Counted from the first letter of the stretch, positions 1-19,446 are shown. The stretch is 20,404 bases of DNA from Candidatus Bipolaricaulia bacterium (GCA_046758705.1 JBHIAT010000053.1:1-20404), one strand, 5' to 3'. A program made the numbers and translations. The notes: generated by a model from the sequence alone, not told the origin.

Positions 1-931
1 TGGTGGACGCCAGGATGATGACCCCCTTGTTCGTCTCGAAGCCGTCCATCTCGGCAAGCATCTGGTTGAGGGTCTGTTCCCGCTCGTCGTGACCGCCACC
101 GATGCCGGTGCCGCGCTTGCCGCCCACGGCGTCGATCTCGTCGATGTAGATGATCGCCGGGGTGTTCTGCTTGCCTTTGTTGAACAGGTCGCGCACCCGG
201 GAGGCACCCACCCCGACGAACATCTCGACGAAGTCGGAGCCGCTGATCGAGAAGAACGGCACATCGGCCTCGCCGGCGATCGCCTTGGCGAGCAGGGTCT
301 TGCCGGTGCCGGGCAGGCCGACGAGCAACACGCCCTTGGGAATCTCAGCACCTAATCGGACAAACTTTTTGGGATGGCGGAGGAACTCGATGATCTCCTT
401 GACCTCCTCTTTGACATCGTCGATGCCGGCGACATCGTCGAAGGTGATCTTGGAGAACTCCTTATCGACCAATCTGGCCCGGCTCTGCCCGAGGGAGAAC
501 AGAGCGTTCTGTTGACTCTGAGCCCGTCGCATCATGTAGATCCAGGCGCCGACCAGTAGGACGACCGGGAGAAGATAGATGAACATGGAGAGCAACCAGC
601 CGCCGTCGGCGGGTTCTACTGCCCTGACCTCCACCCCGTTGTCCAGGAGCCGTTGGATCAGGTCAGCATCGGGGTTGGGAGAGGGAGTCCGGGTGGTGAA
701 CGCGCCTCCGTCGGTCAGGGCACCGCTGATCTGCGTTCCATTCATGGTGACCCGTTCCACCCGGTCATCCCTCACCCACGCGATGAACTCGGAATAGTCG
801 ATCTCTGGAGGTTGGCCCGGAGCGCCGTTGAGCCGAGTCAGCCCCGCATGTAGCAACAGGAGCCCGATGATGATCAAGATCCAGCTCACTCTCCGGTTCC
901 TGTGGTCATTGTGGTTCAACGCCGAATCCAT
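1..931 (-). CDS. ftsH: ATP-dependent zinc metalloprotease FtsH (5' part; runs off the left edge)
   Basis: Not in the ORF track; translated by hand from ATG at 931. Two TM helices ([40 protein letters not shown]), then [33 protein letters not shown] (Walker A), [21 protein letters not shown] (pore loop), [11 protein letters not shown] (Walker B) and [21 protein letters not shown]. The start could instead be TTG at 919. Confidence 0.97.
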
Positions 932-939
932 CCTCCCGT

Positions 940-1155
940 TTAGATCGTCTGAGTGCGAGTAGGCGCACTTGAGCCCTGGATCGCCGTTCCGCAGTGGGGG
1001 CAGAATACGAAACTCTCATTGACGACACTCCCACAGTTGGTGCACGTTATCGTAGCCCCTCGCTTTTCATGTTTCTCCTCATGGCCATGCTGGCCATGCC
1101 GGTGTCTATGCCCGTGCTCAGAGTCATGTCCATGACATCCGCCGCAACAACTCAT
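940..1155 (-). CDS. Small His/Cys-rich protein with C-terminal zinc ribbon (putative metal-binding/storage protein)
   Basis: 71 aa: CCGGC, 9 His in residues 8-29, then CTNC...CPHC. AAGGAGG RBS at 1161-1167; closely packed between the YHS gene and ftsH. Confidence 0.8.
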
Positions 1156-1169
1156 ATTGACCTCCTTAT

Positions 1170-1358
1170 TTAGTGGTGATGGGGATGCGACTTCCCCTCA
1201 GCCTCTTTCCCGATGTACTTCTCGGGGTCCTGTTCGAACTGTCGCTTGCAACCCGGTGCGCAGAAGTAGTACGTCTTCCCCTGGTATTCGTAGGTTGCAG
1301 CGACCTCATCCATCTTGATCTCCATGCCGCAGACGAGATCCTTCACCTTTTCGGCCAT
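1170..1358 (-). CDS. YHS-domain protein
   Basis: KDLVCGMEI...YEYQGKTYYFCAPGCKRQFEQDPEKY is the YHS signature; C-terminal HPHHH. Start moved to ATG 1358 because the ORF-track GTG at 1367 lies inside the AGGAGGTG RBS. Confidence 0.93.
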   Translation of the reverse strand: MAEKVKDLVCGMEIKMDEVAATYEYQGKTYYFCAPGCKRQFEQDPEKYIGKEAEGKSHPHHH

Positions 1359-1386
1359 CTGATTCACCTCCTTTCCGGGACCTCAT

Positions 1387-2019
1387 TTACAACACGCCGA
1401 CCGGTTCCTCAAAATCGCCGTCGGCCATGATCTCACCGTTCCCGTTGATCCGGATGGGCAGTTGGGGCAGGGGCCGGGGGGGCGGTCCGCTGATTACCGC
1501 CGCGCCCTGCTCCGGATCATAGAAACCCGCATGGCACGGACAATGGATAATCAACTCCCTGCCAAACCCCGTTTCCAGCTCTTCAAAGACGGTGCAGGCA
1601 AGGTGTGTGCACAGGGCGCTATAACCGACGAATCCCTCCGCCGTCCACTCCAGCCGAGTGGGCGGCTCGAATGCATCGGGGTCGAACCGGGCCAGGAGGA
1701 TAATTGTATCCTCAACCTGCTCCTTTCCCTGTGGGAAGGCCAGCACAGCTTCGCCGGGGGCCAGGCTCTCCCGGGTGATGACCGCTCCCCGGTTCGCTCC
1801 TTGGGCAAAGACCAACCGATCCCCGGGCGAGACGGGCGCTCCGACCTCCCCGCCCCCCACGGAGGGTTTGAGGAACCGGAGAATCGACAGGACCGAAGCG
1901 ACCAGGCTTCCGGCCCCCAATCCCATCAACCACTGCACCAGCCGCCGACGGCTGATCCTCACGCTCCAACGACCCCGATCCTCCAGCGCCGTCTTCCCCG
2001 ACCCCGACTCCAAGTCCAT
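1387..2019 (-). CDS. Rieske [2Fe-2S] protein, QcrA/PetC-like
   Basis: Box 1 CTHLAC, box 2 CPCHAGFYD, then GPPPRPLPQL. N-terminal SRRRLV twin-arginine-like motif followed by a TM anchor. Start is ATG 2019 or GTG 2028. Confidence 0.92.
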   Translation of the reverse strand: MDLESGSGKTALEDRGRWSVRISRRRLVQWLMGLGAGSLVASVLSILRFLKPSVGGGEVGAPVSPGDRLVFAQGANRGAVITRESLAPGEAVLAFPQGKEQVEDTIILLARFDPDAFEPPTRLEWTAEGFVGYSALCTHLACTVFEELETGFGRELIIHCPCHAGFYDPEQGAAVISGPPPRPLPQLPIRINGNGEIMADGDFEEPVGVL

Positions 2020-2089
2020 TTGAATCACCCCTCTCCTTTTCTGACCTGAAACTATTCATTCTCTCTTGTGATGTTCCTTGCTTTTCAGA

Positions 2090-4597
2090 TCACGATGCGG
2101 CCATCGGAGCTTTGAACCGCCGCAACCGCGTGGCATTGGATACTACCGAGACGGAGCTCGTCGCCATCGCTGCCGCGGCGAGGATCGGGTTCAGCAGCCA
2201 TCCAAACGCGGGGAACAGGATACCGGCGGCCACCGGGATGAGCGCCGTGTTGTACCCATAGGCCCAGCCCAGGTTCTGCTTGATATTGCGCATGGTTGCC
2301 TTCGACAGGGCGATCGCGGTGACAACCCCCCGGAGATCTCCCGAAACGAGCGTGATGTCAGAGGCCTCCATGGCTACATCTGTCCCGGTTCCGATGGCGA
2401 TCCCGATGTCGGCCTGAGCCAGTGCTGGGGAATCGTTGATCCCGTCGCCGACCATCCCGACAATGAGCCCTTCCTCCTGGAGGCGTTTCACCTCGTTGGC
2501 TTTGTCCTGTGGTAGAACCTCAGCCAGCACCCGATCGATGCCCACGCTCCTCGCGATCGCCTCGGCCGTCCGGCGGTTGTCTCCGGTGATCATGGCCACC
2601 TGGAGCCCGAGCCGATGAAGCTGGTTCACCGCCTCGACCGAGTTCTGCTTGAGGGTGTCGGCCACTGCGATGATCCCGGCGGCTGTCCTGTCGATCGCCA
2701 CGACCATCGGGGTCTTGCCATCGTCCGCCAGCGCCTCCAGCTTCGCCGTCAGCGAACCGACCGAAACTCTCTGACGCTCCATGTACTTCAGGTTGCCGAT
2801 GTGCACCGTATATCCGTCGACCCGGGCCTGGATGCCGTGGCCGGGAACGGCCTCGAAGCCATCGGGGTTGAGCAGTTCGATGCCGCGTTCCTTCGCTCCG
2901 TTGACGATCGCCTCCCCCAACGGGTGCTCCGAGCCACGCTCGGCGCTGGCGGTCAGCTGTAATACTTGGGCTTCGGTGAAGCCGTTCGTTACAACGACGT
3001 CGGTCAGCTCCGGCTCCCCCTTGGTGAGTGTCCCGGTCTTGTCGAGGATGATCGCGCTGAGTTTGTGGGCCGTTTCCAGCGCCTCGCCGCTGCGGATGAG
3101 AATGCCGTTCTCCGCGCCCTTGCCGGTGCCGACCATGATCGAGGTCGGCGTTGCCAGACCGAGGGCGCACGGACAGGCGATGATCAGCACGGCGACGAAG
3201 TTCAGCAGCGCATAGGTCAGCGCCGGAGCCGGTCCGAAGAAGTACCAGGTGATGAGGGTGATCACCCCAATTCCGATCACTCCGGGAACGAAGTAGGCGG
3301 TGACCTTGTCAACCAACCTCTGGATCGGAGCCTTGGAGCCCTGAGCTTCCTCTACCATCCGGATGATGTTTGCCAGCATCGTCTCCTTGCCGACCTTGGT
3401 GGCCTCGAATTTGAAACTGCCGGTCTTGTTGATCGTCGCGCCGATCACCTCGTCACCGTTGCGCTTCTCTACGGGAATCGACTCGCCGGTGATCATGGAC
3501 TCATCGACCGAGGAGTAACCGTCCACGACGATCCCGTCGACCGGGATCTTCCCCCCGGGTCGTACGACGACGAGGTCGCCTACGACCACCTCGTCCGCCG
3601 GAATATCCACTTCCTCCCCGTCCCGGATCACCCGGGCCGTCTTCGCCTGTAGCTTTATTAACTTCTTGATTGCCTGCGACGTCCGGCCTTTGGCGATCGC
3701 CTCCAGGTACCGCCCGATCAGGATCAGGGTGATGATGATCGTTGAGGTGTCGAAGTAGACCTCTTTGGCAATTCCCTGGGCTTCGAAGAAATCGGGAAAC
3801 AGGATCAAGGCAACGCTGTACAGGTAAGCCGCCGAGGTGCCGACGGCGATGAGGGTGTTCATGTCACTGGTCCTGTGCTTCAAAGCCGCCCAGGCCCCCC
3901 GGTAGAACTGCCATCCGACCCAGAATTGGACCGGGGTCGTCAGGATCCAGAGGACGACGAAGTTCTGAAGGATATCGGGCACCCAGGGGAAGAGTCGGGG
4001 ATAACTGCCGAAGAAGACCGGAACGCTGATGATCGCCCCGATCGCGATCTTGATCCTGAGCTGTCGCATCATCGCCTGGTGGGCTTGCTCCTGCCGATCG
4101 GCAATCTCCTCCGTCCCGGCTTCCACCACGACCGCCCGGTATCCCACGTCCGTCACTGCGTTCACAAACTCCTTGACTCCGGTCACATCGGGAAGGTACT
4201 CGATCGTCGCCTTCTCCGTGGCCAGGTTGACGGCTACATTGACCACCCCGTCCAGGTCGCGTAACGCCCCCTCGATCGTGGAGACACAGGAAGCGCACGT
4301 CATCCCCTCGATGGGGAAGATGACCTTGTCCACCGCCGTGTGGTATCCCAGATCTTCAACGGTCTCCACCAATCTTTTCGCATCGGTCTGTGTCGGGTCG
4401 AACTGGACGGTGGCCACCTCCGTGGCGAAGTTGACCTGGGCTTCCTGGACGCCGGCCACCTTTCCCAGGCCCTCCTCGATCTTCACCGCACAGCTGGCGC
4501 AACTCATCCCGGTGATCGGGAGATCGATCCGCTTCTTCAGGTTGTGCTTCGACTGTGAGCCTGCAATCCCGTCCTTGAGTTCCCCTGTACTGGCCAT
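2090..4597 (-). CDS. copA: Cu(I)-translocating P1B-1 ATPase
   Basis: Two HMA domains (GMSCASC, GMTCASC), TGES, transmembrane [20 protein letters not shown], and the YN and MxxSS (MATSS) Cu(I) ligands. GGAGG RBS. Confidence 0.97.
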
Positions 4598-4623
4598 GTC
4601 AACCTCCTAGATACGTGAAGTGA

Positions 4624-4914
4624 TCAACGCCGCCTGAACGCTTTCAGCAGGGCACGAATCGGGTCTGCATCCTCGTAGCGCTTCCCCCAGATGCGATATC
4701 CGGCCCGCTCGATCGCCGCCTCGATCGCCTGGCGGCTGGGCTTATCGGGCTCGCATCGCACTGTCACCCGGTCGGTGGCCTTGTCGTAGCCCATCCCAAC
4801 GAAACCATCGAGCTGCTTCAGCTGTTTGACCATCCGCTCCGGATAGCAGCAGCCGATGAACTTGAGTCGGAACGTCTCGGTTCTGGTGCCTGTATCCTGC
4901 TTCAGTTCTGCCAT
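4624..4914 (-). CDS. HMA-like (CopZ-like) small protein with atypical metal loop
   Basis: From ATG 4914 (RBS AGGAGGAGG): TETFRLKFIGCCYPERMVKQLKQLDGF...VTVRCEP...IEAAIERAGY matches the HMA secondary-structure pattern and the AGY terminus. Directly upstream of copA. Confidence 0.72.
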   Translation of the reverse strand: MAELKQDTGTRTETFRLKFIGCCYPERMVKQLKQLDGFVGMGYDKATDRVTVRCEPDKPSRQAIEAAIERAGYRIWGKRYEDADPIRALLKAFRRR

Positions 4915-4941
4915 TGTTGGAGTCCTCCTCCTTGCCTTTGT

Positions 4942-4967
4942 TATCCCACCCCACCTGGGGTGGGGTA
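4942..4967. promoter_or_regulatory. CsoR/RcnR-like operator palindrome, copy 1
   Basis: TAT-CCCACCCCA-CC-TGGGGTGGG-GTA: perfect 9-bp inverted repeat just downstream of the -10 box of the HMA-copA unit. Confidence 0.8.
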
Positions 4968-4974
4968 CACCCAT

Positions 4975-5003
4975 ACTATATCACACGATCGACCGTTTGT
5001 CAA
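4975..5003 (-). promoter_or_regulatory. Sigma70-type promoter of the HMA-copA-Rieske-YHS-ftsH unit
   Basis: Minus strand TTGACA (5003-4998), 17-nt spacer, TATAGT (4980-4975), with a TGn extended -10. Confidence 0.85.
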
Positions 5004-5089
5004 GGGAGCCCATCCTATCCTGAGTACACCCTGTCTCATCCCTCTCCATTGCAGAGGATTTCGGCGTCGAGGTCGGGCCAATGTCACCT

Positions 5090-6304
5090 CTATCTCTTGA
5101 GAAGTTTGCGCAGCGTCAGGCTCGGCCCGCCAATCCCCCAAAGATAGAAGTAGGCGATCAGGTTCTTCAGCGTTCGCGCCGTCCAGCCGGAGAAGTGCAA
5201 TCGGAGGCGTCCCAGATGCAACACCCCCAAAGCGTCCTTGCGTCCCAAACTCAAGAACGTGCCGAGTCGCTTGGGCTGGAAGGGTTGAGGGGCGCGACCT
5301 GCCAGCTTGCAGGACAGGTTTCTCGCGGCCCAATACCCTTGCTGAAATGCAATCTGGGCGGTGGGTGGCAAGGGGTGCCCCTGGTTGTCAACCGCCAGCG
5401 AGCTGTCTCCAAGGATGTAAACGTCGGAGTGGTCGCGAGCCTGTAAGAACTCGTCGACGTACGCCCGACCCTGACGGTCAACCGCAAACCCACTTTGCTC
5501 GACCAGACGGTGGCCGCGCACGCCGCCGGCCCAGATGATCACCCCGGCCTCCAGGCACCGCCCGTCCTTCAACGCCACACAGTGGGGCTCCACACGGGCG
5601 ATGGGAACCCCTGTGACCAGCTCCACCCTTTTATGCATCAGGGTATTTGTCGCCTGCTTGATCAGCAGGGGATCGAAACCGGGAAGGATCGTTTCCGATC
5701 CTTCCACCATCGTGATGTGGATCTCCTCGGGATCCAGGTCGAAGGTCTTGGCCAGATACGGCCGCCAATCGGCCATCTCACTGGCTCGCTCGACCCCGGT
5801 GAACCCGCCTCCCCCGATGAGAATGCGGGGGCGCCAGCGCGCAGCAGGATTTTTGTCATAGGCGACCATGGCCAGCTCGATTTGACTGTGGATCAGGTGG
5901 GCGCTGCTCAGATCGTGTAGCACGAGCGCATGCTCCTCCAGACCCTGGATCTGGTAATACTGCGGCTCCCAGCCCAGCGCGACGATCAGGGCGTCGTAAC
6001 GGAGGGTCTTTATCTCGCCGCGCGTCTGCACCTCAACCTGACGACCTCGGAGGTCGATGGCTTGGACGGTGCCGCGCATGACGTCGATCTCGGGGTTGAG
6101 CAGTCTGGGCAGGTAGACGGAGACCTCTTCATAGGGCGTGTGCCAGACGGCCGGATGGTGCAAGATCGTCGTCAGGTAATGGTAGTGGTGATCGTTCACC
6201 AAAGTGACCTGAGCTGTGCCCGAGGCGGCCAGCCGGCGCAGGCGGACGGCGGCGGTCACCCCGGCATAGCCTCCGCCAAGGATGAGGATTCGGGTCTTGC
6301 TCAC
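5090..6304 (-). CDS. ndh: Type II NADH:quinone oxidoreductase-like FAD protein
   Basis: GGGYAG (FAD), GGGFTGVE (NADH), acidic residue in ITMVE, VIIWAGG, YILGDSS, the AQxAxQ quinone motif (PPTAQIAFQQG) and a C-terminal membrane-anchor region. Confidence 0.88.
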   Translation of the reverse strand: MSKTRILILGGGYAGVTAAVRLRRLAASGTAQVTLVNDHHYHYLTTILHHPAVWHTPYEEVSVYLPRLLNPEIDVMRGTVQAIDLRGRQVEVQTRGEIKTLRYDALIVALGWEPQYYQIQGLEEHALVLHDLSSAHLIHSQIELAMVAYDKNPAARWRPRILIGGGGFTGVERASEMADWRPYLAKTFDLDPEEIHITMVEGSETILPGFDPLLIKQATNTLMHKRVELVTGVPIARVEPHCVALKDGRCLEAGVIIWAGGVRGHRLVEQSGFAVDRQGRAYVDEFLQARDHSDVYILGDSSLAVDNQGHPLPPTAQIAFQQGYWAARNLSCKLAGRAPQPFQPKRLGTFLSLGRKDALGVLHLGRLRLHFSGWTARTLKNLIAYFYLWGIGGPSLTLRKLLKR

Positions 6305-6310
6305 CCTGAT

Positions 6311-6838
6311 TCACCCCTGTTTCGCTCTGCTGCGCTCAGGACGGAGGAGCCAGCTGCCCACCAGCAGGCTCAACCCGAGCACGAGACCGATGACGGTCCA
6401 ATCCTGTGACGATTTCGGCTGGTCGAGCTCCATGAACGCCGCGGTGGGTTCTCGGGGTTCCTGAGTTGCGGGGCTGGCACTCGCGGCGATCGCGAGCTCG
6501 AAGGTGGCGCTCACGCCGTTGGCGCCGATGGCCTTGAGCAAGTAGGTGCCGGGCGGTATATCGGGCGGGATCGCCACGTTCGTTTTAAACCCGCCGTCCT
6601 CGTCCCCCTGGACTTGGCCCAGGCGGAACTTGCCCTTGAGGCCCTCTAAGAAGAGCGCGATCGGACCGTTCGGGTTGATATCGCCCCCCTCTACAAAGAT
6701 CGTCTCTGCCGGAGCGACCGTCTGCGGATAGCTGTTCACCTCCGCACCTTCGTGAGCCCAGCCCACCGGCCCAAAGACCAAAAGGGCGAGCAAGACGATC
6801 AGCGCCCGGCGTCTGTATAATCCTACTTTGCGTCTTAT
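6311..6838 (-). CDS. Exported, C-terminally anchored Ig-like protein with predicted mature N-terminal His
   Basis: Signal peptide ending GWA-HEG, beta-rich domain (GGFKTNVAIPPDIPPGTYLLKAIG), Pro/Ala linker, C-terminal TM and basic tail. The full signal peptide needs an ATA start at 6838; the ORF track uses TTG 6793. Confidence 0.75.
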   Translation of the reverse strand: MRRKVGLYRRRALIVLLALLVFGPVGWAHEGAEVNSYPQTVAPAETIFVEGGDINPNGPIALFLEGLKGKFRLGQVQGDEDGGFKTNVAIPPDIPPGTYLLKAIGANGVSATFELAIAASASPATQEPREPTAAFMELDQPKSSQDWTVIGLVLGLSLLVGSWLLRPERSRAKQG

Positions 6839-7050
6839 CTTTTCTCCCTTCTTGGGTGTCGTCGATCAGTGAGATACAGAATCCGCGCCGTTGCCAGCAG
6901 ACCCACGGCCAGCGCTGCTAATCCTAGGGACACCAGAAGCCAGGCGAAAGGATCGCCGCCTCCGGAAACCAGGATTTTCCCTCCCGTGTACACCCCGATC
7001 ATGCCGAGCGTCGCCAACAGGAGATAGCCGAGAAAGCGCTTGACGATCAT
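6835..7050 (-). CDS. Small two-TM membrane protein, unknown function
   Basis: 71 aa with two hydrophobic helices. Its ATG abuts the cytochrome b stop codon; GGAGGAGG RBS. Confidence 0.75.
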   Translation of the reverse strand: MIVKRFLGYLLLATLGMIGVYTGGKILVSGGGDPFAWLLVSLGLAALAVGLLATARILYLTDRRHPRREKR

Positions 7051-8172
7051 TCAGGCACCTCCTCCCATCTCGATGTGGCTCACCGGCGGCGTGAGCGCCA
7101 CGTACAGGGTCAAGCCAATCAACAGGAACAGCAGGATGACGCCGACGATGAGCGTCACCGGCCGCCGTCGCGGTGCCAGATAGGGACTGCGATCGAGGAA
7201 GGGAACGAGCGCAAGCAGAACGAAGAGCGCGACCGGGATCCAGAGCAGCGCGGCGGTTCCGATCCAGTCTTCAAACGCATAGAGCCACAGGAACATCCAC
7301 GGCGGTTTGGTGACCTCCGCGCCCGGCACCGGCGCAAACCCCAGCGGCGCGGGCCAGATCAGCGCCAACCCACCGGCCAGCGCGAGCAGCCACAGGCCAT
7401 AGCCGCTCATACGCCTGAGGTGCGCGGAGAAGCGACCTGCCCCCTCCTTGCCCCGGGTGCCGGCCCGCGCCTCGGCCGTCGGGCGCGGCGAGATGCCCTG
7501 ATACTTGACTAGCATGAGGTGGACTGCAATCAGGATCAACAGGAGCGCCGGAAGCACGGCGATGTGAACGGCGTAGAGGCGGACGAGCATCGGCACACTC
7601 AGCGTGAAGCTCTGAGAGAACCAGGCCCCCAGTCCGCCCAACAGCTGTGAGAAGGCCATGTTGTGGAGCATCGCCTCGTAGGCCTCCTGATCCCACTTGA
7701 GGATCGTGCCGGTGAAGATGGAGCCGACGATGATGGCGAGCAGCCCCACGCCGGACAGCCAGTTGACCTCCCGGGGCCGCTTGTACGCGCCGGTGAAGAA
7801 GACCCGGATCAGGTGTAGGAGCACGGTGACCGTCACCAAGCTCGCCGTCCAGTAGTGAATACCCCGGATGAAGTTGCCCAGGGACGCCTGTTGCACGATG
7901 TAGACGACGCTGTCGTGCGCTTGGCCCGGGTCGGGGTTGTAGTACTGGGTGAGGTAGATACCGGTGGCGATCAAGATCACGAAGCCGAAGAGCGTGATGC
8001 CACCCAGCATATAGGGCAACGTATTGGCATGCTCGGGAACCGGATAGCTTAACGCGCTCAGCCCTAATCGCTCATCCAACACCTCCCAAAAACGTTGCTT
8101 CCAACCTGTTGTTTGCGTCGAAGTTTTTGTTGTTGATTCTTTTGTTGCTGATTCTACTTTCTGATTTGTCAT
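7051..8172 (-). CDS. Cytochrome b subunit of a Rieske/cyt b complex (fused b6-like and subunit IV-like domains)
   Basis: LGGITL, heme His pairs GIHYW...LLHLIRVFFTGAYKRPREVNWLSG and AVHIAVLP...AVHL, FTGTILKWDQ, KPPWMFLWLY (PEWY position) and LVPFLDRS. Confidence 0.93.
   Translation of the reverse strand: MTNQKVESATKESTTKTSTQTTGWKQRFWEVLDERLGLSALSYPVPEHANTLPYMLGGITLFGFVILIATGIYLTQYYNPDPGQAHDSVVYIVQQASLGNFIRGIHYWTASLVTVTVLLHLIRVFFTGAYKRPREVNWLSGVGLLAIIVGSIFTGTILKWDQEAYEAMLHNMAFSQLLGGLGAWFSQSFTLSVPMLVRLYAVHIAVLPALLLILIAVHLMLVKYQGISPRPTAEARAGTRGKEGAGRFSAHLRRMSGYGLWLLALAGGLALIWPAPLGFAPVPGAEVTKPPWMFLWLYAFEDWIGTAALLWIPVALFVLLALVPFLDRSPYLAPRRRPVTLIVGVILLFLLIGLTLYVALTPPVSHIEMGGGA
8125..8154. repeat. 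15-bp tandem duplication in the cytochrome b N-terminal extension
   Basis: TTTTGTTGTTGATTC / TTTTGTTGCTGATTC, 1 mismatch; encodes ESATK-ESTTK. Confidence 0.7.
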
Positions 8173-8201
8173 CTTACACTCCTTAGATTCTGTCAGAGGG
8201 G

Positions 8202-8243
8202 GGACCGTCGGCCCCCTTCCAACTGCGGCAGGGCCGACGGTCC
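8202..8243. other. Intergenic stem-loop between the DOMON and cytochrome b genes
   Basis: GGACCGTCGGCCC (8202-8214) and GGGCCGACGGTCC (8231-8243) form a perfect 13-bp stem with a 16-nt loop. No U-tract follows on the coding strand. Confidence 0.7.
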
Positions 8244-8268
8244 TCCATCCGGGCCCACGCGACTTCTC

Positions 8269-8871
8269 TTAGCCTGCGCTCACTGTTCCCGCGAACAGGT
8301 CCACCGTCACCGCAACGCGATTTTGGCCGTGGTAGTTGTTCAGGTTGTCTTGCTCTCCGTAGGCTAACAGCATCGTTTGTTGACCGGGTGTCAGGGCTGC
8401 GTCGAACTCATCTCCGGTGTTCAGCTTGCGAACGAACTCCAGCGTCGTGTCCGCTTCGGTCTGGATGGCCACGGCGGATTCAATATCGTCGGTGCCGCCG
8501 AGGAACGTGTCGGCCATGGGCGGGCTTATGGGGGATTGCTGGAAAGCGTCCAGGATATCGGTCTCCCCATCCTCGTCGTGGAAGAAGCCCAGGATCATGT
8601 CTGCATCTCGTTTTTTAAGCCCTGTTGAGGTAAAACCGATGCCCAGCCAGCCTGTGGTCGGCGCTTCCAGCGCAAACGTGATTGCGCCTTCCTCGATATC
8701 AACAGTCCAGTGGACCTTCATGTTTAGGTCCTCGTTAGTGTAGTGATGATCATACTCTCCGTCGTTGACGATTCCATCCACCACGGGACCGCCCTCATGG
8801 GCCAAGCCCCCCCAAGCCAGCATCAGGGCAGCCAACGCCGCCAATGTACCTAACGTGATTGTGCGTTTCAT
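8269..8871 (-). CDS. Secreted DOMON-domain protein (putative Met/His heme-binding)
   Basis: Signal peptide ending GLA-HEG. DOMON motifs TGWLGIGF, DADMILG, TTLEFVRKLNTGDEFD and LLAYG...NYHG; AGGAGG RBS. Confidence 0.85.
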   Translation of the reverse strand: MKRTITLGTLAALAALMLAWGGLAHEGGPVVDGIVNDGEYDHHYTNEDLNMKVHWTVDIEEGAITFALEAPTTGWLGIGFTSTGLKKRDADMILGFFHDEDGETDILDAFQQSPISPPMADTFLGGTDDIESAVAIQTEADTTLEFVRKLNTGDEFDAALTPGQQTMLLAYGEQDNLNNYHGQNRVAVTVDLFAGTVSAG

Positions 8872-8915
8872 CTTTGTCCTCCTGTATTTCGCCGTTGTAT
8901 GGCTTTGTTATCTTA

Positions 8916-8945
8916 ATTATCCCACCCCAGGAGGGGAGGGGTCAA
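8916..8945 (-). promoter_or_regulatory. Putative promoter of the DOMON-cyt b-ndh unit with CsoR-like operator copy 2 in its spacer
   Basis: Minus strand TTGACC (8945-8940), 18-nt spacer, GATAAT (8921-8916) with TGn. On the plus strand the spacer region reads TAT-CCCACCCCA-GG-AGGGGAGGG-GT, the same palindrome with 2 mismatches in the right arm. Confidence 0.7.
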
Positions 8946-9072
8946 TGACCTTAGTCATATCGGAGGGTGATCTATCTCATCGACCTATTCCACCACCGCT
9001 CTCACTTCCCTCTCCTGAGGTTTCGCACCGTGAACAGGTCATCGGAGAGCCCCGTGTCGGGTTTCATCTTCC

Positions 9073-11532
9073 TTACAGATCGCTACCCGCCGGGTGTAGC
9101 GTGCGCTCGATAGTCGGTGTCTTGAGATAGCGTGGCTTCCACAGCAGCGTCAGCGCCGGAAGCACGATCAGCGTGAACAACACGCTCACCAGCAGGGCCA
9201 GTGCGGTCAAGCCGCCCAGCAGCCGAATGTGCTGGCCGCCGGCTAACAGCAGCACCGCGAACCCTGCACCCACCGACAGCGAGTTGATCAAGATCGCCAC
9301 ACCCGTGGTCTGCAGGGTTTTGAGCAAGGCTGCTTGCTCATCGCCGGATCGTTCGAATTCCAGCCTGAAGCGGCTGGTGAAGTGGATCGCATAGTCAATC
9401 CCCAGCCCAATGGTGATACTGGCGACCATCGCGGTGAACGAGTCCAGGCCGATGCCGAAGTAGCCCAACACAGCGAAGTTCACCAGCAGGGTCAGCGCCA
9501 CCGGAACGATCCCCAGCAGCCCGGCTTTCGGCGAACGGAAGATCAAGATCAGCAGGATCGTGACCGCCGCCAAGGCGAGCAGGGTGCTTTCGATCTGCGT
9601 GGGCAGCAACTCCTTTTCCATCCGATCCAGCACCGGAGCGAGCCCGGTCAACTCGGCCGAGAGTGGCACGGTGCGCACGGCCTCCATGCCGTATTGGGCC
9701 TGCAAGGAGGCGTATTCTTCCGGACTGAGGGCTAACGTCGCCGCGGCCTGTTGAGCCTCCGGACGGTTCAGCGCCTCACGCGCGGCTTCGGACACTTGAG
9801 TCACATCGACCACAATCAGCTCGCGGGGCAGGCGATCCAGGAAGGCGTCCGCCGCCTCCACCGCCCGGCTGATGACGGCCGTGCCCAGCGAGGCCACCTT
9901 GGCCTGGATCAACGCCTCCTGGCCATCTGTGCGCACCATCTGATCCAGGAAACCTTGTCCTCGGAGCAGGAGCCACAGGTTGTTCACCTGGTCACGATCG
10001 GCCGGCACGGCAAATCGACCGGTCAGCGCTCCATTCATCTCGGCCAGGATCGAGGCGATCGACGTGGCCTCGCTCACGTTTGGCAACGTGTTTAGATAGC
10101 GCTCTATCGTGTACATGGTCTCAAGAGTGATCGGGTCCTGGATATCGCCCTTGACCGAGATCAACAGGGGCAACGAACCGCCGAACTCGTCGCGCAGCAG
10201 CATCTCGGCCTGGTAGGGTTTGCTGCCCCGCGCCAGGCACAGCGACCAATCCACGTTCATCACGATGCGGGGAATGCCCACCGCGAGCAACGCCACCAAG
10301 CCTACAGTGAGCAGCGCCACCGCGCTCGGTCGCCGGTAGATCAGCCTGCCCAAGCCGGCCATGATGCGGCTTTCTCCTCGGCTGCTGCGCGGCTTCTGGG
10401 CATCATCGTCAGCCTTCGAAGCGGACGTTCGTCCTCGGCCGAACGACAGTCCCGCCGGGATCACGATCAAGGTAGCCACCAGCGCCAAAAAGATCCCCAG
10501 CGAGGTGACCCAACCGAACGTCCGAATGATGTCAAAGTCCGAGATGGCCAGCGAGCCGAACCCGATGATCGTGGTGATCGACGTGAATACGATCGGCGCA
10601 CCCAATTCCTTCATAGTGATTTGGACGGCCTCGCGGTGTCCGGCCCCGTCCGCATGTGCTTCGTAAAAGCGCCGCATAAAGTGAATGCCGTCCGCCGAGC
10701 CCATCGCAATCAGGATCACGGGCGCGATCCCGACGAGCATGTCGATAGGACGACCCAACAGTGCCAGGATGCCCACCGTCCAAACCACGGCCAACAACAC
10801 CACAACAAGCGGCACCAACACCCCGCTCAGGCGACGGAAGCTCAGCGCCAACACGCCGACCAAAAGCAGAATGATAAGCGGCACGAGGAAGAACAGGTTG
10901 TCCATGATCAATCCCGTCATGGAATAGACGAGAAACGGCATCCCGCCATAGTAGATATTCTCGGTGTCCGGCGCGATCTGTTGGGTGATTTGATCGATCC
11001 GGTCGGCGACGTTGAAGTGGTTGGCTTGCGGTGCGAGACGGAGCAGGATGACGGCCGTTGTGCCCGCTTGGTTGATAATCGTGCCGACGTACATCTCCTG
11101 GGAGAGCACGTAACGTCTGAGCTGCTCTAATGTTTCAGGGGTGTCCAGGAAGGGTTTTCCTTCGAGCAGCATGCCCACCCTGAGGCTGCCATCATCCGCC
11201 TTTTCGAGGGCGACCACGTTGATCAGGCTGGTCGCCGAATCCACCCCATCGATGGTCCCATAAGCTTGGGTCAGCTGATCGATCAGGGTCAGATTTTCTG
11301 TTGTGAAGACGTCGTCGGTCTTGACGAGCACCATGCCGATATAGTTGGACTTAAACACCTCATCCACGCGGTTGAACTCCTGGACGAGAGGGCTGTCTTG
11401 AGAGAGATACGTGGAGAAATCGCCGTTCAGCTCGGTCCTCATCACCCCAATCCCCAGGAGCACGGTGAGCACCAGGACAGCTATCAGCAGGGGTGCCCGC
11501 CGGCGCAGCACGAAGTTTGTCAGCGTTTCCAT
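9073..11532 (-). CDS. MMPL-family (RND superfamily) transporter
   Basis: Two repeats of 1 TM, a large soluble loop and 5 TM, with motifs MGSADGIHF and GLGIDYAIHF. Start moved to ATG 11532 because GTG 11544 lies in the RBS. Confidence 0.9.
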   Translation of the reverse strand: METLTNFVLRRRAPLLIAVLVLTVLLGIGVMRTELNGDFSTYLSQDSPLVQEFNRVDEVFKSNYIGMVLVKTDDVFTTENLTLIDQLTQAYGTIDGVDSATSLINVVALEKADDGSLRVGMLLEGKPFLDTPETLEQLRRYVLSQEMYVGTIINQAGTTAVILLRLAPQANHFNVADRIDQITQQIAPDTENIYYGGMPFLVYSMTGLIMDNLFFLVPLIILLLVGVLALSFRRLSGVLVPLVVVLLAVVWTVGILALLGRPIDMLVGIAPVILIAMGSADGIHFMRRFYEAHADGAGHREAVQITMKELGAPIVFTSITTIIGFGSLAISDFDIIRTFGWVTSLGIFLALVATLIVIPAGLSFGRGRTSASKADDDAQKPRSSRGESRIMAGLGRLIYRRPSAVALLTVGLVALLAVGIPRIVMNVDWSLCLARGSKPYQAEMLLRDEFGGSLPLLISVKGDIQDPITLETMYTIERYLNTLPNVSEATSIASILAEMNGALTGRFAVPADRDQVNNLWLLLRGQGFLDQMVRTDGQEALIQAKVASLGTAVISRAVEAADAFLDRLPRELIVVDVTQVSEAAREALNRPEAQQAAATLALSPEEYASLQAQYGMEAVRTVPLSAELTGLAPVLDRMEKELLPTQIESTLLALAAVTILLILIFRSPKAGLLGIVPVALTLLVNFAVLGYFGIGLDSFTAMVASITIGLGIDYAIHFTSRFRLEFERSGDEQAALLKTLQTTGVAILINSLSVGAGFAVLLLAGGQHIRLLGGLTALALLVSVLFTLIVLPALTLLWKPRYLKTPTIERTLHPAGSDL

Positions 11533-11603
11533 GATGACATTCACCCTTTTAGGAAACGATCTAAAGCATCAATCCACGCTTACAACACCGTCGTCATAAC
11601 CGC

Positions 11604-12329
11604 TCATTTCGACACTTCACCGGACTTTCGCTCGCCCAAGGGACAGTGGGCCAAGCACCGATGCCACTCGTCCCGGTGTGTCGTATCCAAAATACCGATT
11701 TCGTAGAAGACGTGGGCCACCTGCCACAGGTCGCCCACCGTGTAATCGATCCTCTCAGCTGGTTCCCTACGTCCGTTGACCCACACTGTCGTCCAACCCC
11801 GCTCCGCAGCAGGGATCAGGTTGATCCGTGAATCATCGAGTAGCATCAGTTCCCTGTCGCCCACGCCAAGGTGTGCCACCACCCGTTCATAAGTCGTCGG
11901 ATCGGGCTTCCCGCGATAGTTCGAGAATTCCAGCGCAAACACCTTGCGGAACCGGTCTGCTATTCCCAACACCGTCAGCACGCGCTCGGCGTAAAACTGA
12001 GGCGCGTTGGTAAACACGCACTTGTCCACGTGGAGGCAATCCAACAGGCAACCCAAATCCGCATCCTGTTTCAGATAGTCTTCGACGGGCAGGTCGTGCG
12101 CGTAGGCGAGAAACTCCACCACGTCCACGTCGTGGTGCAAGACCAGCCCCCGCGTGGTCGAGCCGTAGCGCTCGTTATATGCCTTACGCAGCGTTTGCGC
12201 CTGTTGGGGGGGGACCATCCCCAAGTGCTCGACCATGTACTGGATCATGCGTTGTCCCAGTGCCTGCATCAGCCCGGCAGCGGGTGGATAGAGCGTGTCG
12301 TCCAGGTCAAACAGCGTATAGCGGATCAT
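11604..12329 (-). CDS. HAD-superfamily hydrolase, pyrimidine 5'-nucleotidase-like
   Basis: LFDLDDTLYP, YGSTTRGL, VFTNA, GKPDP and LLDDSRINLIPAAERGWTTVWV. ATG 12329 overlaps the upstream stop codon (ATGA). Confidence 0.9.
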   Translation of the reverse strand: MIRYTLFDLDDTLYPPAAGLMQALGQRMIQYMVEHLGMVPPQQAQTLRKAYNERYGSTTRGLVLHHDVDVVEFLAYAHDLPVEDYLKQDADLGCLLDCLHVDKCVFTNAPQFYAERVLTVLGIADRFRKVFALEFSNYRGKPDPTTYERVVAHLGVGDRELMLLDDSRINLIPAAERGWTTVWVNGRREPAERIDYTVGDLWQVAHVFYEIGILDTTHRDEWHRCLAHCPLGERKSGEVSK

Positions 12330-13732
12330 GGCACTCCTCGTTGCAAAGCCACAGTCTCTGAGTAGCGGGGAAGATGCGTCTTCCAATTCAGTTGCTCTCG
12401 GATACGTTTTTGAAATGCCCGCGCTGCCTGAGGATCCCCGTGGACGATGAACGTCTGGCGTGGCGCCGTTTCAAAACCGGACAGCCAGCGCAGCAATTCG
12501 TGATAATCCCCGTGAGCCGACAGACCATCTATCGAGGCGATTTGCGCCCGTACAGGGACAGGTATCCCGTGGATTTTGATCTCGTTTGTGCCATCGACGA
12601 GCGCCCGACCACGCGTGCCCTGAGCCTGATATCCCACGAACAGCACGGTGTTCTTCGGATCGGGCAGGCGATGCTTGAGGTGGTGCACCACGCGGCCACC
12701 GTTGCACATCCCGCTGGCCGAGATGATGATCATCGGGCCGGGTGCGTCATTGAGCCATTTGGATTCATGCACTGTGCGGGCGAAATGGGTCTGGTGGCAT
12801 CGCAACGGGCATTCCTTCTCGTCCATGAGCAAGTTCACGTTCAGGTTGTGCTCGTCACCGAAGCGGCAATAGATAGCGGCCGCGTCGATGGCCATGGGGC
12901 TGTCCAGATAGACCGGCAGGTCCGGGATGCGCTTTTGATCCTGAAGCTTGCGCAGGTAGTAAAGCACCTGCTGCGTGCGGCCCACGGCGAAACTGGGAAT
13001 CAACAGGGCACCGCTCCGTTCAACCGTCGCCGTGACGACTGCGGCAAGCTGGTCTTCCAGCGGCTCTCGGGGATGTTCGCGGTCGCCGTAGGTCGATTCG
13101 ACGATCAAATAGTCCGCACGAGCCACGGATGCTGGGGACCTCATGACTTCTTGGTCGTAGCCGCCTAGGTCTCCGGAAAACACCAGTTTGAGTTGCTGGG
13201 TGCCGACAGAGACGTCGCATTCCAAGATGGCCGAGCCCAGAACGTGACCTGCAGGACGCATCGTCACGGTCAGCTGCTCATCGATGGCAACGGGCTGCTC
13301 CAGCTTCACGGGGCGGAGCGATTCCAGCGACCGAACCGCTTGGTCATACGTGTAGAGGGGCAGTGCTGGCTTGTATCGCGAATAGCCCTTCTTGTTGGCA
13401 TAGCTCGCCTGCTCCTCCTGCAGATAGCCCGAGTTGGGTAGGAGTAACGCCAGGAGTGCGCGGGTCGCTTCGGACGCGTATACCGGGCCTGCAAAGCCCG
13501 CGTTGATTAGTTTGGGTAAGTAGCCCGAATGGTCGATATGAGCATGTGTCAACACAACAGCGTCAAGCTGTGTTGGATCGATAGGAAGGCGGTCCCAGTT
13601 GAGCTGCTCCAGCTCCGGCGGCCCTTGAAAGATTCCGCAGTCGATCAGGTAATTCTTAGCTCCGATCGAAAGCCAGTGCTTCGATCCGGTCACCGTTCGG
13701 GCTGCGCCGAGAAACGTCAATCGCACGTTCAT
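12326..13732 (-). CDS. MBL-fold metallohydrolase with beta-CASP domain (Ysh1/CPSF-like ribonuclease family)
   Basis: FLGAARTVTGS, LIDCG, LTHAHIDHSG, AGHVLGSA, FSGDLG, VESTYGDREH, FAVGRTQ, SASGM...HHL, LSAHGD and FIVHGD. Confidence 0.94.
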   Translation of the reverse strand: MNVRLTFLGAARTVTGSKHWLSIGAKNYLIDCGIFQGPPELEQLNWDRLPIDPTQLDAVVLTHAHIDHSGYLPKLINAGFAGPVYASEATRALLALLLPNSGYLQEEQASYANKKGYSRYKPALPLYTYDQAVRSLESLRPVKLEQPVAIDEQLTVTMRPAGHVLGSAILECDVSVGTQQLKLVFSGDLGGYDQEVMRSPASVARADYLIVESTYGDREHPREPLEDQLAAVVTATVERSGALLIPSFAVGRTQQVLYYLRKLQDQKRIPDLPVYLDSPMAIDAAAIYCRFGDEHNLNVNLLMDEKECPLRCHQTHFARTVHESKWLNDAPGPMIIISASGMCNGGRVVHHLKHRLPDPKNTVLFVGYQAQGTRGRALVDGTNEIKIHGIPVPVRAQIASIDGLSAHGDYHELLRWLSGFETAPRQTFIVHGDPQAARAFQKRIREQLNWKTHLPRYSETVALQRGVP

Positions 13733-13744
13733 CAAATCTCCTCC

Positions 13745-14431
13745 TCAGCGTTCAGAAGAGTCGCCGTCGTGTTCATCTCGCTCGTTCCTCAGTGTTGAAC
13801 GACCGAAGCGTGGAAAGAATGTTGGCGTGATCGCGGCATAGCGGACGTATTCCTCGCCAAATTCTGCCAGGGCTTCGCGCTCCTCCCGACGGGCCAGCCG
13901 GACGTACATCGTTACCAATATAGGCAGCATGGTCAGCGTGAGAAGCGTCGGCCACTGGAGCAGGAATCCGAGCATGATCAGCACAAACCCGGCGTACTGC
14001 GGATGGCGCAGGCGTGCGTAGGGACCAGTGGTGGCGAGCTGCTGCGTGCGTTGTGCTTTGTAGAGCACCTTCCAGGCGGACGCCAGCAGGATGAACCCGC
14101 CGGCGATCAGTATGTTGCTGAGCAGATGGAAGGGGTACAGGTGTGGATCACCCTTCCAACCCAGCAATGTCGACCAGAGATGTCCAGCGTTATGAGAGAA
14201 TAGGTCAATCCCGGCGTAGGAGTTGCCCAGCCACCCGGAGAGCAGATAGATGGTCAGTGGAAATCCATACATCTCGGTGAAGAGCGCCATCAAAAAAGCG
14301 GAGAATGCGCCGAAAGATCGCCAGTCGCGGGTGGTGCGCGGACGCGTGAAGCTGAAAGCGAAGATGATGAACACCGCTGCGTTGATCGCGACCAACGGCC
14401 AGAGACCGTAGGCCGACAGTTCTGGACTCAT
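13745..14431 (-). CDS. Isoprenylcysteine carboxylmethyltransferase (ICMT/PEMT-like) family membrane protein
   Basis: AYGLW...RDWRSFGAFSAF...LFTEMYGFPLTIYLL, LATTGPYARLRHPQY and REEREALAEFGEEY. This subfamily is often found near copper ATPase genes. Confidence 0.9.
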   Translation of the reverse strand: MSPELSAYGLWPLVAINAAVFIIFAFSFTRPRTTRDWRSFGAFSAFLMALFTEMYGFPLTIYLLSGWLGNSYAGIDLFSHNAGHLWSTLLGWKGDPHLYPFHLLSNILIAGGFILLASAWKVLYKAQRTQQLATTGPYARLRHPQYAGFVLIMLGFLLQWPTLLTLTMLPILVTMYVRLARREEREALAEFGEEYVRYAAITPTFFPRFGRSTLRNERDEHDGDSSER

Positions 14432-14467
14432 CGTTTCCCTCCCTTAGGACGCTGACTGTTGTGACCC

Positions 14468-15055
14468 TCAGCGTTGAAAATGCCAGCGCATCTCATCAGG
14501 GTGCTTTAACCGCTCCAGCACCTTGAGCTCGATCTGACGGACCCGTTCCCCGCTCAGACCCACAATCTTTCCGACCTCCCTGAGCGTCTTCGACTTCCCA
14601 TCCACCAACCCGTAACGCAGTTCCAGGATCCTGCGCTCCTTGTCGCTCAACCGGCTGAGCGACCGATCCAGATCCCGCCTCAGCAACTCCTCAAACCCCT
14701 GTTCGCTTGGAGACGGAGCGTGGTGATCCTCGATGAACTCAACAAACAACTCGTTCCCGTCATCGCCGACCGGTTCGTCGAGCGAGGCAATCTGCCGGGG
14801 AACTCGTTCGATAGCCTGTAGACGCTCCACCGGGGTCTCCAACTCGTCAGCGAGCTGTTCAGGGTCAGGGGGCTGTCCATACGCCTCTAAGTGAGCTTGT
14901 TTCGTTCCCTCGACCTTGTTGATCTCTCCGATGATGGTGGAGGTTTGGTGGGCACCGATATCGGCTCGATCGATCAGCAGGATTCTGCCGCTGAGATGGG
15001 AGGCGACGCTCAACCCGGCGAAACTCGCTCCGGCGATCACCACCTCGTAGTCCAT
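14468..15055 (-). CDS. Chimeric ORF: 40 N-terminal aa of the FAD oxidoreductase fused in frame to sigma70 regions 3-4 (possible pseudogene)
   Basis: Residues 1-40 (MDYEVVIAGASFAG...HQTST) are a Rossmann start, and 14936-14990 is identical to 20350-20404. The remainder aligns without gaps to the sigma gene at 18499-18962. ORF is uninterrupted with an AGGAGGT RBS. Confidence 0.85.
   Translation of the reverse strand: MDYEVVIAGASFAGLSVASHLSGRILLIDRADIGAHQTSTIIGEINKVEGTKQAHLEAYGQPPDPEQLADELETPVERLQAIERVPRQIASLDEPVGDDGNELFVEFIEDHHAPSPSEQGFEELLRRDLDRSLSRLSDKERRILELRYGLVDGKSKTLREVGKIVGLSGERVRQIELKVLERLKHPDEMRWHFQR
14473..14936. repeat. Direct repeat, copy A (sigma 3' half); partner is 18499-18962
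   Basis: Offset 4026 bp. By manual count, 14473-14786 has 2 mismatches in 314 bp and 14787-14936 has about 38 mismatches in 150 bp. Confidence 0.95.
14936..14990. repeat. Direct repeat, copy A (oxidoreductase 5' part); partner is 20350-20404
   Basis: 55/55 identical up to the window edge; offset 5414 bp. Confidence 0.95.
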
Positions 15056-15089
15056 GATCGGACGACCTCCTCTCTTCGAGGGTGCTCCT

Positions 15090-15113
15090 ACCCCACCCCA
15101 GGTGGGGTGGGGT
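15090..15113. promoter_or_regulatory. CsoR/RcnR-like operator palindrome, copy 3
   Basis: ACCCCACCCCA-GG-TGGGGTGGGGT: perfect 11-bp inverted repeat just downstream of the -10 box. Confidence 0.8.
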
Positions 15114-15120
15114 CACTCAT

Positions 15121-15149
15121 ACTATACCACATGATCGGCCGTTTGTCAA
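15121..15149 (-). promoter_or_regulatory. Sigma70-type promoter of the chimera-ICMT-MBL-HAD-MMPL unit
   Basis: Minus strand TTGACA (15149-15144), 17-nt spacer, TATAGT (15126-15121) with TGn. Homologous to the promoter at 4975-5003, including the spacer. Confidence 0.85.
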
Positions 15150-15244
15150 GTGAGCACATCACGGCAGGATGATGTAGACGACGCTGACGCTTAAGTAGCC
15201 CGAGTGGCCCACAAGATGAACCTCGGCAGGAAAGGGGTGATTAA

Positions 15245-15271
15245 GTCCGAGTGATGGGGCAGCACTCGGAC
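15245..15271. other. Stem-loop downstream of the phosphomutase gene (possible weak terminator)
   Basis: GTCCGAGTG-N9-CACTCGGAC perfect 9-bp stem; followed only by TTAA on the minus strand. Confidence 0.4.
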
Positions 15272-15329
15272 CATGTAGCCGTGCAGGCTGAGTTAGCCGC
15301 TTACCGGATCGGTCCGGCCTGGTGAATCT

Positions 15330-19381: not shown

Positions 19382-19446
19382 GATTCTTCCTCCTGTTTCA
19401 GTTGATGCCGTGGCACTTCGGATGTCTGTAAGACCACTCACACCCA

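Follow-up and report, generated by a model that had tools for sequence, protein, structure and literature searches.

Predicted CsoR-type operators at three promoters of a Candidatus Bipolaricaulia contig and a putative copper regulon reaching beyond efflux

The window, that is the whole stretch of 20,404 nucleotides analysed here (GCA_046758705.1, JBHIAT010000053.1:1-20404), is contig C53 of a Candidatus Bipolaricaulia bacterium genome of 3.70 Mb in 319 contigs. One palindrome occurs in it three times, and each copy is 5' of a tightly spaced run of minus-strand genes, the strand on which every gene in 1-15149 lies. The question raised by this locus is which regulator the palindrome serves and how far the genes under it extend beyond copper efflux. 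Comparison with published sites and with related genomes showed that the three palindromes are very likely operators of a Cu(I)-sensing CsoR repressor.

Operator boxes and their promoters

Pattern search found the motif at all three places named by an earlier sequence-only reading of this DNA (4945, 8921 with 2 mismatches, and 15092). The palindrome of that reading stood, the conserved element being better written as an 8-4-8 inverted repeat, CCCACCCC-N4-GGGGTGGG, with three copies on the minus strand (Table 1). The chance expectation for the pattern as first given was 0.04, and three matches were obtained in none of 100 shuffles. A scan with the sigma-70 consensus showed that the top three promoter-like matches in 1-16000 are exactly the three box places; together with the gene map, it bore out the sigma70-type promoter and packed gene run proposed for each site. 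Box 1 begins 10 bases past the -10 hexamer, with 30 bases from the box end to the start codon (4914), box 3 begins 9 bases past the hexamer, and box 2 occupies the spacer between TTGACC (8945-8940) and GATAAT (8921-8916). No Rfam family was found in the window at gathering scores.

The cso operator of Mycobacterium tuberculosis, printed as GTAGCCCACCCCCAGTGGGGTGGGATAC (PMC10601412), holds both half-sites and the 4-base spacing of the core in the window, and the CsoR site of Thermus thermophilus HB8, printed as CCCCACCCCACCTGGGGTGGGG (PMC10318464), equals window positions 15112-15091 on the minus strand in all 22 bases (box 3 and one flanking base per side). The likeness to the cso operator stated in the earlier reading was thus right, the 8-4-8 core being identical in both published sites. 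The palindrome was thus found to match experimentally defined sites, to overlap the core promoter and to be linked to copper genes, with copA in this genome and with csoR, copA and copZ in relatives.

Table 1. Coordinates of the boxes, promoters, genes and repeat in the window, followed by the further boxes of this genome (contig:position)
Feature	Position	Strand	Remark
CsoR box 1	4945-4964	-	0 mismatches; 36.0 bits, top weight-matrix match of the genome
CsoR box 2	8921-8940	-	2 mismatches; 28.3 bits; orthologous site in G091
CsoR box 3	15092-15111	-	0 mismatches; 33.8 bits
Promoter P1	4975-5003	-	TTGACA-17-TATAGT; 11/12 consensus matches; TG before -10
Promoter P2	8916-8945	-	TTGACC-18-GATAAT; 10/12 consensus matches; TG before -10
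Promoter P3	15121-15149	-	TTGACA-17-TATAGT; 11/12 consensus matches; TG before -10
Unit 1	2-4914	-	gene gaps 8-61 bp
HMA-like 96-residue protein	4624-4914	-	unit 1; GCC in place of CxxC
CopA P1B-ATPase	2090-4597	-	unit 1
QcrA-like Rieske protein	1387-2028	-	unit 1
YHS protein	1170-1367	-	unit 1
Zinc-ribbon protein	940-1155	-	unit 1
FtsH, N-terminal part	2-931	-	unit 1; runs off the contig
Unit 2	5090-8871	-	
Secreted DOMON protein	8269-8871	-	unit 2
bc-type cytochrome b, full	7051-8172	-	unit 2
71-residue membrane peptide	6835-7050	-	unit 2; two-helix
160-residue protein	6311-6793	-	unit 2; no Pfam or NCBIfam match
Type II NADH dehydrogenase (NDH-2)	5090-6304	-	unit 2; full-length match to 4NWZ (E 1.7e-85)
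Unit 3 without its first open reading frame (ORF)	9073-14431	-	
Chimeric 195-residue ORF	14468-15055	-	first ORF behind box 3
ICMT/PEMT-like methyltransferase	13745-14431	-	unit 3
Beta-CASP nuclease	12326-13732	-	unit 3
Pyrimidine 5'-nucleotidase	11604-12386	-	unit 3; over NCBIfam cut-off
MMPL/HAE3 transporter	9073-11544	-	unit 3
Repeat R	14936-15185	-	~250 bp; P3, box 3 and first 40 codons of a geranylgeranyl-reductase-like FAD oxidoreductase
Box on C70	C70:356		CcdA-like and ResA-like thiol pair behind it
Box on C70	C70:2021		Rieske protein, then TusA, sulfite reductase and sirohaem genes
Box on C70	C70:9770		YHS-HMA-CopA, cupredoxin and patatin behind it
Box on C176	C176:4279		P1B ATPase without HMA domain
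Box on C176	C176:6603		gene cut by contig end
Box on C200	C200:821		Met-rich 252-residue secreted protein and SHOCT protein

The regulon in this genome and in relatives

Allowing up to three mismatches, the pattern gave 11 matches in this genome, and nine of these are within or immediately after a promoter of the TTGACA/TATAGT type; the remaining two (C54:14635 and C55:9103) are not promoter-borne. With a weight matrix whose 29 training sites all came from other genomes, 13 matches exceeded the threshold of 14 bits, compared with 1-2 per shuffle in three block shuffles (top score 16.4 bits). All nine promoter sites are among the 13, and the seven best matches (23.8-36.0 bits) are all promoter sites, so that a check for a motif scattered away from promoters, which would have told against a regulon, found the opposite. 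The match at C200:4214 is a weak tenth candidate box. An activator site of the MerR/CueR type was rejected, with spacers of 17-18 bp and not 19-20 bp and eight of nine boxes placed after the -10 hexamer; it is also disfavoured by the MerR genes of this genome, which adjoin other ATPases.

The putative regulon includes three P1B-type ATPases and CopZ-like, YHS, cupredoxin, Met-rich and HMA-like proteins, and its predicted content is copper-centred. Sites 1 and 3 have the whole promoter of ~70 bp in common (86% identity), and the promoter-operator modules of ~60-70 bp at P1, P3, C70:356 and C70:9770 are 78-87% identical. The arrangement cTTGACAA-N-TATAGT-N-box was seen again in other genomes; this, together with the identity among the four modules, suggests that the regulon grew by copying of a 60-70-bp promoter-operator module.

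The phylum sample contained 184 genomes, this one included, from metagenome-assembled genome (MAG) records labelled Bipolaricaulota, Acetothermia or Fraserbacteria; the other sampled genomes are mostly 1-2.5 Mb in size. Boxes with no more than one mismatch were present in 57 of the 184, mostly one or two per genome, and the counts were 7 for this genome, 7 for G091, 5 for G111, 3 for G113 and 3 for G125. G091, which belongs to another family, has six boxes in 28 kb, and G111, from a third family, has five in 26 kb. The box stands directly ahead of csoR in three genomes of the same class, G024, G091 (where a YNCE-propeller/rhodanese gene follows csoR) and G007 (where csoR comes after Met-rich and HMA-like genes). 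Among 80 loci of CsoR homologues from many phyla, a box with up to two mismatches was found at 7 (reversed control, 0 of 80), in five of them within 150 bp 5' of csoR. The box itself is conserved between phyla and its flanks are not.

Results from the relatives showed that several non-efflux genes are also found behind boxes elsewhere. The MMPL transporter is 72% identical to the MMPLs of G091 and G111, each the first gene behind a box; both of these have a LolA-like partner, that of G111 also has a cyclopropane synthase, and an MMPL gene adjoins a box in G011 too. The beta-CASP nuclease (75%) and the nucleotidase (62%) match a G111 pair that follows YHS-CopA and cupredoxin in a box-headed operon. 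Orthologues behind boxes were likewise found for cytochrome b (79% in G111; 88% in G091 over 218 residues), the 160-residue protein (71% in G111, 69% in G091), the 71-residue peptide (58% in G091) and the DOMON protein (57% in G091), and the promoter flanks of the cytochrome b set in relatives resemble the flank of site 2. A DUF1573/DUF1573/415-residue trio of contig C200 is box-headed in G091. The proposal of a regulon reaching beyond efflux therefore gained comparative support, since MMPL, beta-CASP, nucleotidase, cytochrome b, DOMON and Rieske orthologues are found in box-headed operons of two further families.

Candidate repressor, mechanism and alternatives

No csoR was found in the window, in agreement with the earlier expectation that the repressor is encoded outside it, and three CsoR-family genes are located elsewhere in the genome: one on contig C306 (105 residues), one at C135:7932-8231 and one divided over two contig ends, at the start of C135 and the end of C126. 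All three paralogues carry Cys-His-Cys. The C306 protein scored 93.2 bits for Pfam PF02583 (cut-off 22.8) and has the x-Cys-His-Cys pattern with a Tyr before the first Cys and a Glu 20 residues past the His. In CsoR, this Tyr and Glu have second-shell roles. Among solved structures, the C306 protein is closest to M. tuberculosis CsoR 2HH7 (E 2.3e-18), with 4M1P and T. thermophilus 3AAI next, and its Tyr-Cys, His, Cys and Glu positions are aligned with those of 2HH7; the Cu(I) ligands of M. tuberculosis CsoR are Cys36, His61' and Cys65' (PMC10601412). The closest homologue of the C306 protein (73%; locus L026, in a MAG labelled Candidatus Bipolaricaulota) lacks a box within 3 kb, with up to four mismatches allowed. 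Identity to the box-headed CsoRs of relatives is 53-57% for the C306 protein and 30-33% for the other two paralogues, and the promoter of the C135 paralogue bears a different palindrome, ATCCCCTGCCGGGGGAT. The C306 CsoR is most likely the cognate repressor, as judged by these comparisons. Its gene is preceded by a YNCE-propeller gene, within which the contig ends; in G003 a box heads a homologue of this propeller gene, and this, with the boxed csoR-YNCE pair of G091, would make autoregulation of the C306 csoR likely. The two other paralogues resemble InrS in helix 1, and the one with the ATCCCCTGCCGGGGGAT palindrome is followed by a DUF3105-redoxin fusion.

In the proposed mechanism, CsoR would sit on the box when copper is absent; at site 2 it would cover the -35/-10 spacer, at the other two sites the transcription start, and RNA polymerase would be blocked. 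M. tuberculosis CsoR binds as two tetramers per operator and is released by Cu(I) binding (PMC10601412). Here, Cu(I) at the Cys-His-Cys site would release CsoR and all units would be switched on together. Repression by occlusion appears to be the best-supported reading because the box overlaps the +1 position or the spacer every time; CsoR binding, the copper response, the operon extents and the choice of paralogue are inferred from sequence. For the single Cu(I)-sensing repressor of the sequence-only reading, operator identity, gene content and boxed orthologues all spoke in favour, and co-induction by copper stays an inference.

Several observations weigh against the copper-repressor reading in part. 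Box 2 has two mismatches and a position within its promoter that differs from that of boxes 1 and 3. The reversed control matched 18 of the 184 phylum genomes, these being GC-rich, so that single matches can be chance, and four of the 14 loci inspected in relatives were not promoter-like. Three paralogues exist, the C306 protein was assigned by similarity, no csoR is beside any box in this genome, and the C306 contig (1.8 kb) lacks its upstream end. The operon extents were judged from gene spacing, from which the co-transcription of long gene runs is presumed, and a gap of 96 bp with a hairpin splits the DOMON and cytochrome b genes, just as a gap of 305 bp follows the first gene of the C70:2021 unit. 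For NDH-2, FtsH and the ICMT-like gene, the loci of relatives that were compared gave no counterpart over half or more of the length, and these three are presumed members by their position. The orthology of the geranylgeranyl-reductase-like protein with a boxed FAD oxidoreductase of G091 was unsupported (E 0.024), and the link from box 3 to the genes from ICMT to MMPL hangs on one assembled junction, with repeat R having two left and two right contexts.

The boxes could be CsoR-family operators whose signal is not, or not only, copper, such as sulfide or persulfide stress in the manner of CstR, or Ag(I). The TusA, sulfite reductase and sirohaem genes and the CcdA/ResA thiol pair of the regulon, the YNCE-propeller/rhodanese gene after csoR in G091, the hydrothermal vent metagenome label of the runs carrying the window DNA, and the existence of persulfide-sensing CsoR-family members (PMC8643695) would fit such a signal. 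It is nevertheless unlikely, since the C306 protein keeps the full Cys-His-Cys set with its His, its second-shell Tyr and Glu align with those of M. tuberculosis CsoR, and three copper-type P1B ATPases with cupredoxin, YHS, HMA-like and Met-rich proteins dominate the regulon. A CstR-type persulfide sensor, which has two Cys without the ligand His, was ruled out as a class by the His in all three paralogues. That the C135:7932-8231 paralogue or the split C135/C126 paralogue binds the boxes in place of the C306 protein has little probability: both are also Cys-His-Cys proteins and one adjoins an ArsR/HMA-ATPase pair, but their low identity to box-headed CsoRs and the different palindrome at the C135 promoter argue otherwise, and the T. 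thermophilus paralogues are reported not to bind each other's sites (PMC10318464). It is very improbable that the palindrome acts mainly as RNA, in a stable 5' hairpin, or that it was carried along with a duplicated promoter cassette and serves no repressor. A transcribed box would fold as a G-C hairpin of 8-10 bp, the leaders of units 1 and 3 reach -24.3 and -34.0 kcal/mol (z -2.4 and -3.3), and the four modules are 78-87% identical; however, at site 2 and its counterparts in G091 and G111 the box lies between -35 and -10 and is untranscribed, which argues for DNA binding as the shared function, and only the box is conserved between phyla and equals biochemically defined protein-binding sites.

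Doubt of another kind, concerning the assembly, attaches to unit 3. Positions 14936-14990 are identical to the contig end at 20350-20404, a 55-bp exact repeat; such a length fits an assembler word overlap, and repeats of this kind may mark graph branches rather than biology. Residues 1-40 of the chimeric ORF are the N-terminus of the oxidoreductase whose body lies at 19447-20403, and the remainder is sigma-70 regions 3-4, the same regions of a full sigma factor ORF at 18470-19705, with DNA 91% identical to 18499-18962. Over 14473-14772 the DNA is 99% identical to 18499-18798, after which identity drops to 77% as far as the junction (14936). In three metagenome runs from a single study the contigs branch at two places, 15185 and 15278. 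Each run has one record that extends over the stretch end, but the run contigs are short and gave no joints for pairing the flanks of repeat R, and no other contig of this genome overlaps the right end of R or the end of C176. Unit 3 may therefore not be a real operon of the chromosome, box 3 serving only the geranylgeranyl-reductase-like gene beyond the contig end and the sigma junction being a strain variant or a wrong path through the repeat. This is a possible but rather doubtful explanation: the exact repeat at the contig end abuts the start of the sigma-gene similarity, the run contigs branch, and identity to the full sigma gene is 99% for the 3' 300 bases of the fragment and 77% for the 164 bases beside the junction, whereas the fragment is a separate copy, as shown by its differences from the full gene to either side of the identical stretch, the oxidoreductase-sigma fusion is in frame, and the downstream beta-CASP, nucleotidase and MMPL orthologues are box-controlled in relatives anyway. 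The ambiguity weakens the statement that box 3 drives unit 3 in this genome; owing to the boxed orthologues, it does not weaken the regulon membership of these three genes. The sigma fragment earlier listed in unit 3 is correct as to sigma regions 3-4, and it is part of a chimeric ORF inside an ambiguously assembled repeat. A second copy of R is very probably present before the oxidoreductase gene, beyond the contig end, as predicted from the repeated sequence, and the full sigma factor and the patatin gene would then lie downstream of a box.

The sigma-70-family ORF at 18470-19705 has an Arg-rich N-terminal extension of ~100 residues that shares 258 bp with the end of the oxidoreductase ORF; the true start of the sigma ORF is probably further in. 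A paralogue with 78-82% DNA identity is found on C25. A stretch of contig C5 (14153-14275) is 98% identical to positions 15278-15400, which hold the 3' end of a phosphoglycerate-mutase-like gene and the DNA that follows.

Comparison with known regulons and gene content

M. tuberculosis CsoR, with its cso operator (csoR-Rv0968-ctpV-Rv0970), shares the 8-4-8 core and the Cys-His-Cys Cu(I) ligands. That protein is reported to control directly its own operon only (PMC4801387, where the RicR regulon is also mentioned); here, in contrast, nine to ten promoters carry the box and no csoR is beside one in the assembled DNA. T. thermophilus HB8 CsoR (TTHA1719), whose copZ-csoR-copA site is the one matching site 3, differs in controlling a single operon of copper genes only and in having His where the C306 CsoR has the second Cys (alignment to 3AAI). 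RicR, a CsoR paralogue of M. tuberculosis, is one repressor for several unlinked promoters that share one palindrome, and its regulon includes metallothionein and multicopper oxidase genes. The predicted system here is alike in having one CsoR-family repressor and one palindrome for scattered promoters, and unlike in gene content. The C306 protein was rejected as a RicR, with 62.7 bits for NCBIfam NF052430 against a cut-off of 175. A self-regulated csoR and copA form the core of known CsoR regulons (PMC4938975; PMC3902906), and in gut Firmicutes these two account for >90% of CsoR-regulated promoters (PMC4938975); copA is likewise boxed here and csoR in relatives, but most units here carry non-efflux genes.

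The switch itself is textbook; what is new is the breadth of the regulon and the conservation of its non-efflux genes. Small regulons of csoR, copA, copZ and a few extras have been described for CsoR, whereas about ten promoters and thirty-plus genes are predicted here, and this box is kept ahead of non-efflux members across three families of an uncultured phylum. No CsoR regulon in Bipolaricaulota was found in the literature, judged by titles and abstract starts. Copper probably switches on pumps together with electron-transport, membrane-lipid and RNA-degrading genes. The beta-CASP and nucleotidase pair, lipid export by MMPL and the DOMON/cytochrome b/Rieske set are candidates for copper-stress functions; the operator set is clean enough for use in copper-responsive parts, and the copied module offers an example of how a regulon may grow.

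A wider and more tentative proposal is that CsoR is a global copper switch that adds electron-transfer, envelope-lipid and RNA-turnover sets and possibly the full sigma factor, with a second regulator at the palindrome ATGAC-N4-GTCAT gating a subset. If so, a copper-linked electron branch would run from NDH-2 through quinone and Rieske/cytochrome b, with the DOMON haem domain, to cupredoxin, and could handle the redox state of periplasmic copper or replace iron-sulfur-rich enzymes. Such a branch would be compatible with the host, in which a haem-copper oxidase (C80) and cytochrome bd (C233) are present as well. Envelope lipids would be remodelled by MMPL with its LolA-like partner, cyclopropane synthase, the ICMT-like methylase, the geranylgeranyl-reductase-like enzyme and patatin, and the beta-CASP nuclease and pyrimidine 5'-nucleotidase would form the RNA-turnover pair. 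A full sigma-70-family factor behind the unassembled copy of box 3 would make the regulon two-tiered.

Among the window proteins, the HMA-like protein of unit 1 is 37% identical to a G007 protein that retains CxxC. The flavoprotein of unit 2 was rejected as a sulfide:quinone reductase, as the reductase 3HYV matches its N-terminus only (E 1.2e-7). Pfam and NCBIfam gave nothing for the 96-, 71- and 160-residue proteins of the window and the 252-residue protein of C200; for the 160-residue protein, ESM Atlas gave unnamed clusters only (at 0.90), which is a lead and nothing more. The gap between the DOMON and cytochrome b genes contains, at 8196-8249, a 19-bp inverted repeat (89% complementary, 16-base loop) that could set unequal levels of the two products. 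The boxed secreted proteins C200:874-1632 and L015:1561-1920 have Met-Gly-rich runs (MMGPG, GMGM repeats) resembling periplasmic Cu(I)-binding proteins, and neither has a Pfam match. At least six P1B-type ATPases (on C176, C126, C135, C70 and C53) were counted in the genome, with regulators of four kinds in all (CsoR boxes, two MerR genes, one ArsR gene).

At 8945-8958, the palindrome ATGAC-N4-GTCAT overlaps the -35 hexamer of P2 as a possible second regulator site. In the form ATGAY-N4-RTCAT it overlaps or precedes the -35 hexamer in a subset of CsoR-box promoters in at least four genomes, with further places at C70:9667 and C200:4292 of this genome and at loci L107, L108, L110 and L015, and TGACGYGCGTCA variants are present at the C200:821 and C176:6603 promoters. 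This genome contains 50 copies of ATGAY-N4-RTCAT, compared with 1-9 for five scrambled patterns, and a second regulator may act there; no fewer than 16 of the copies are intergenic, and some are paired 22 bp apart.

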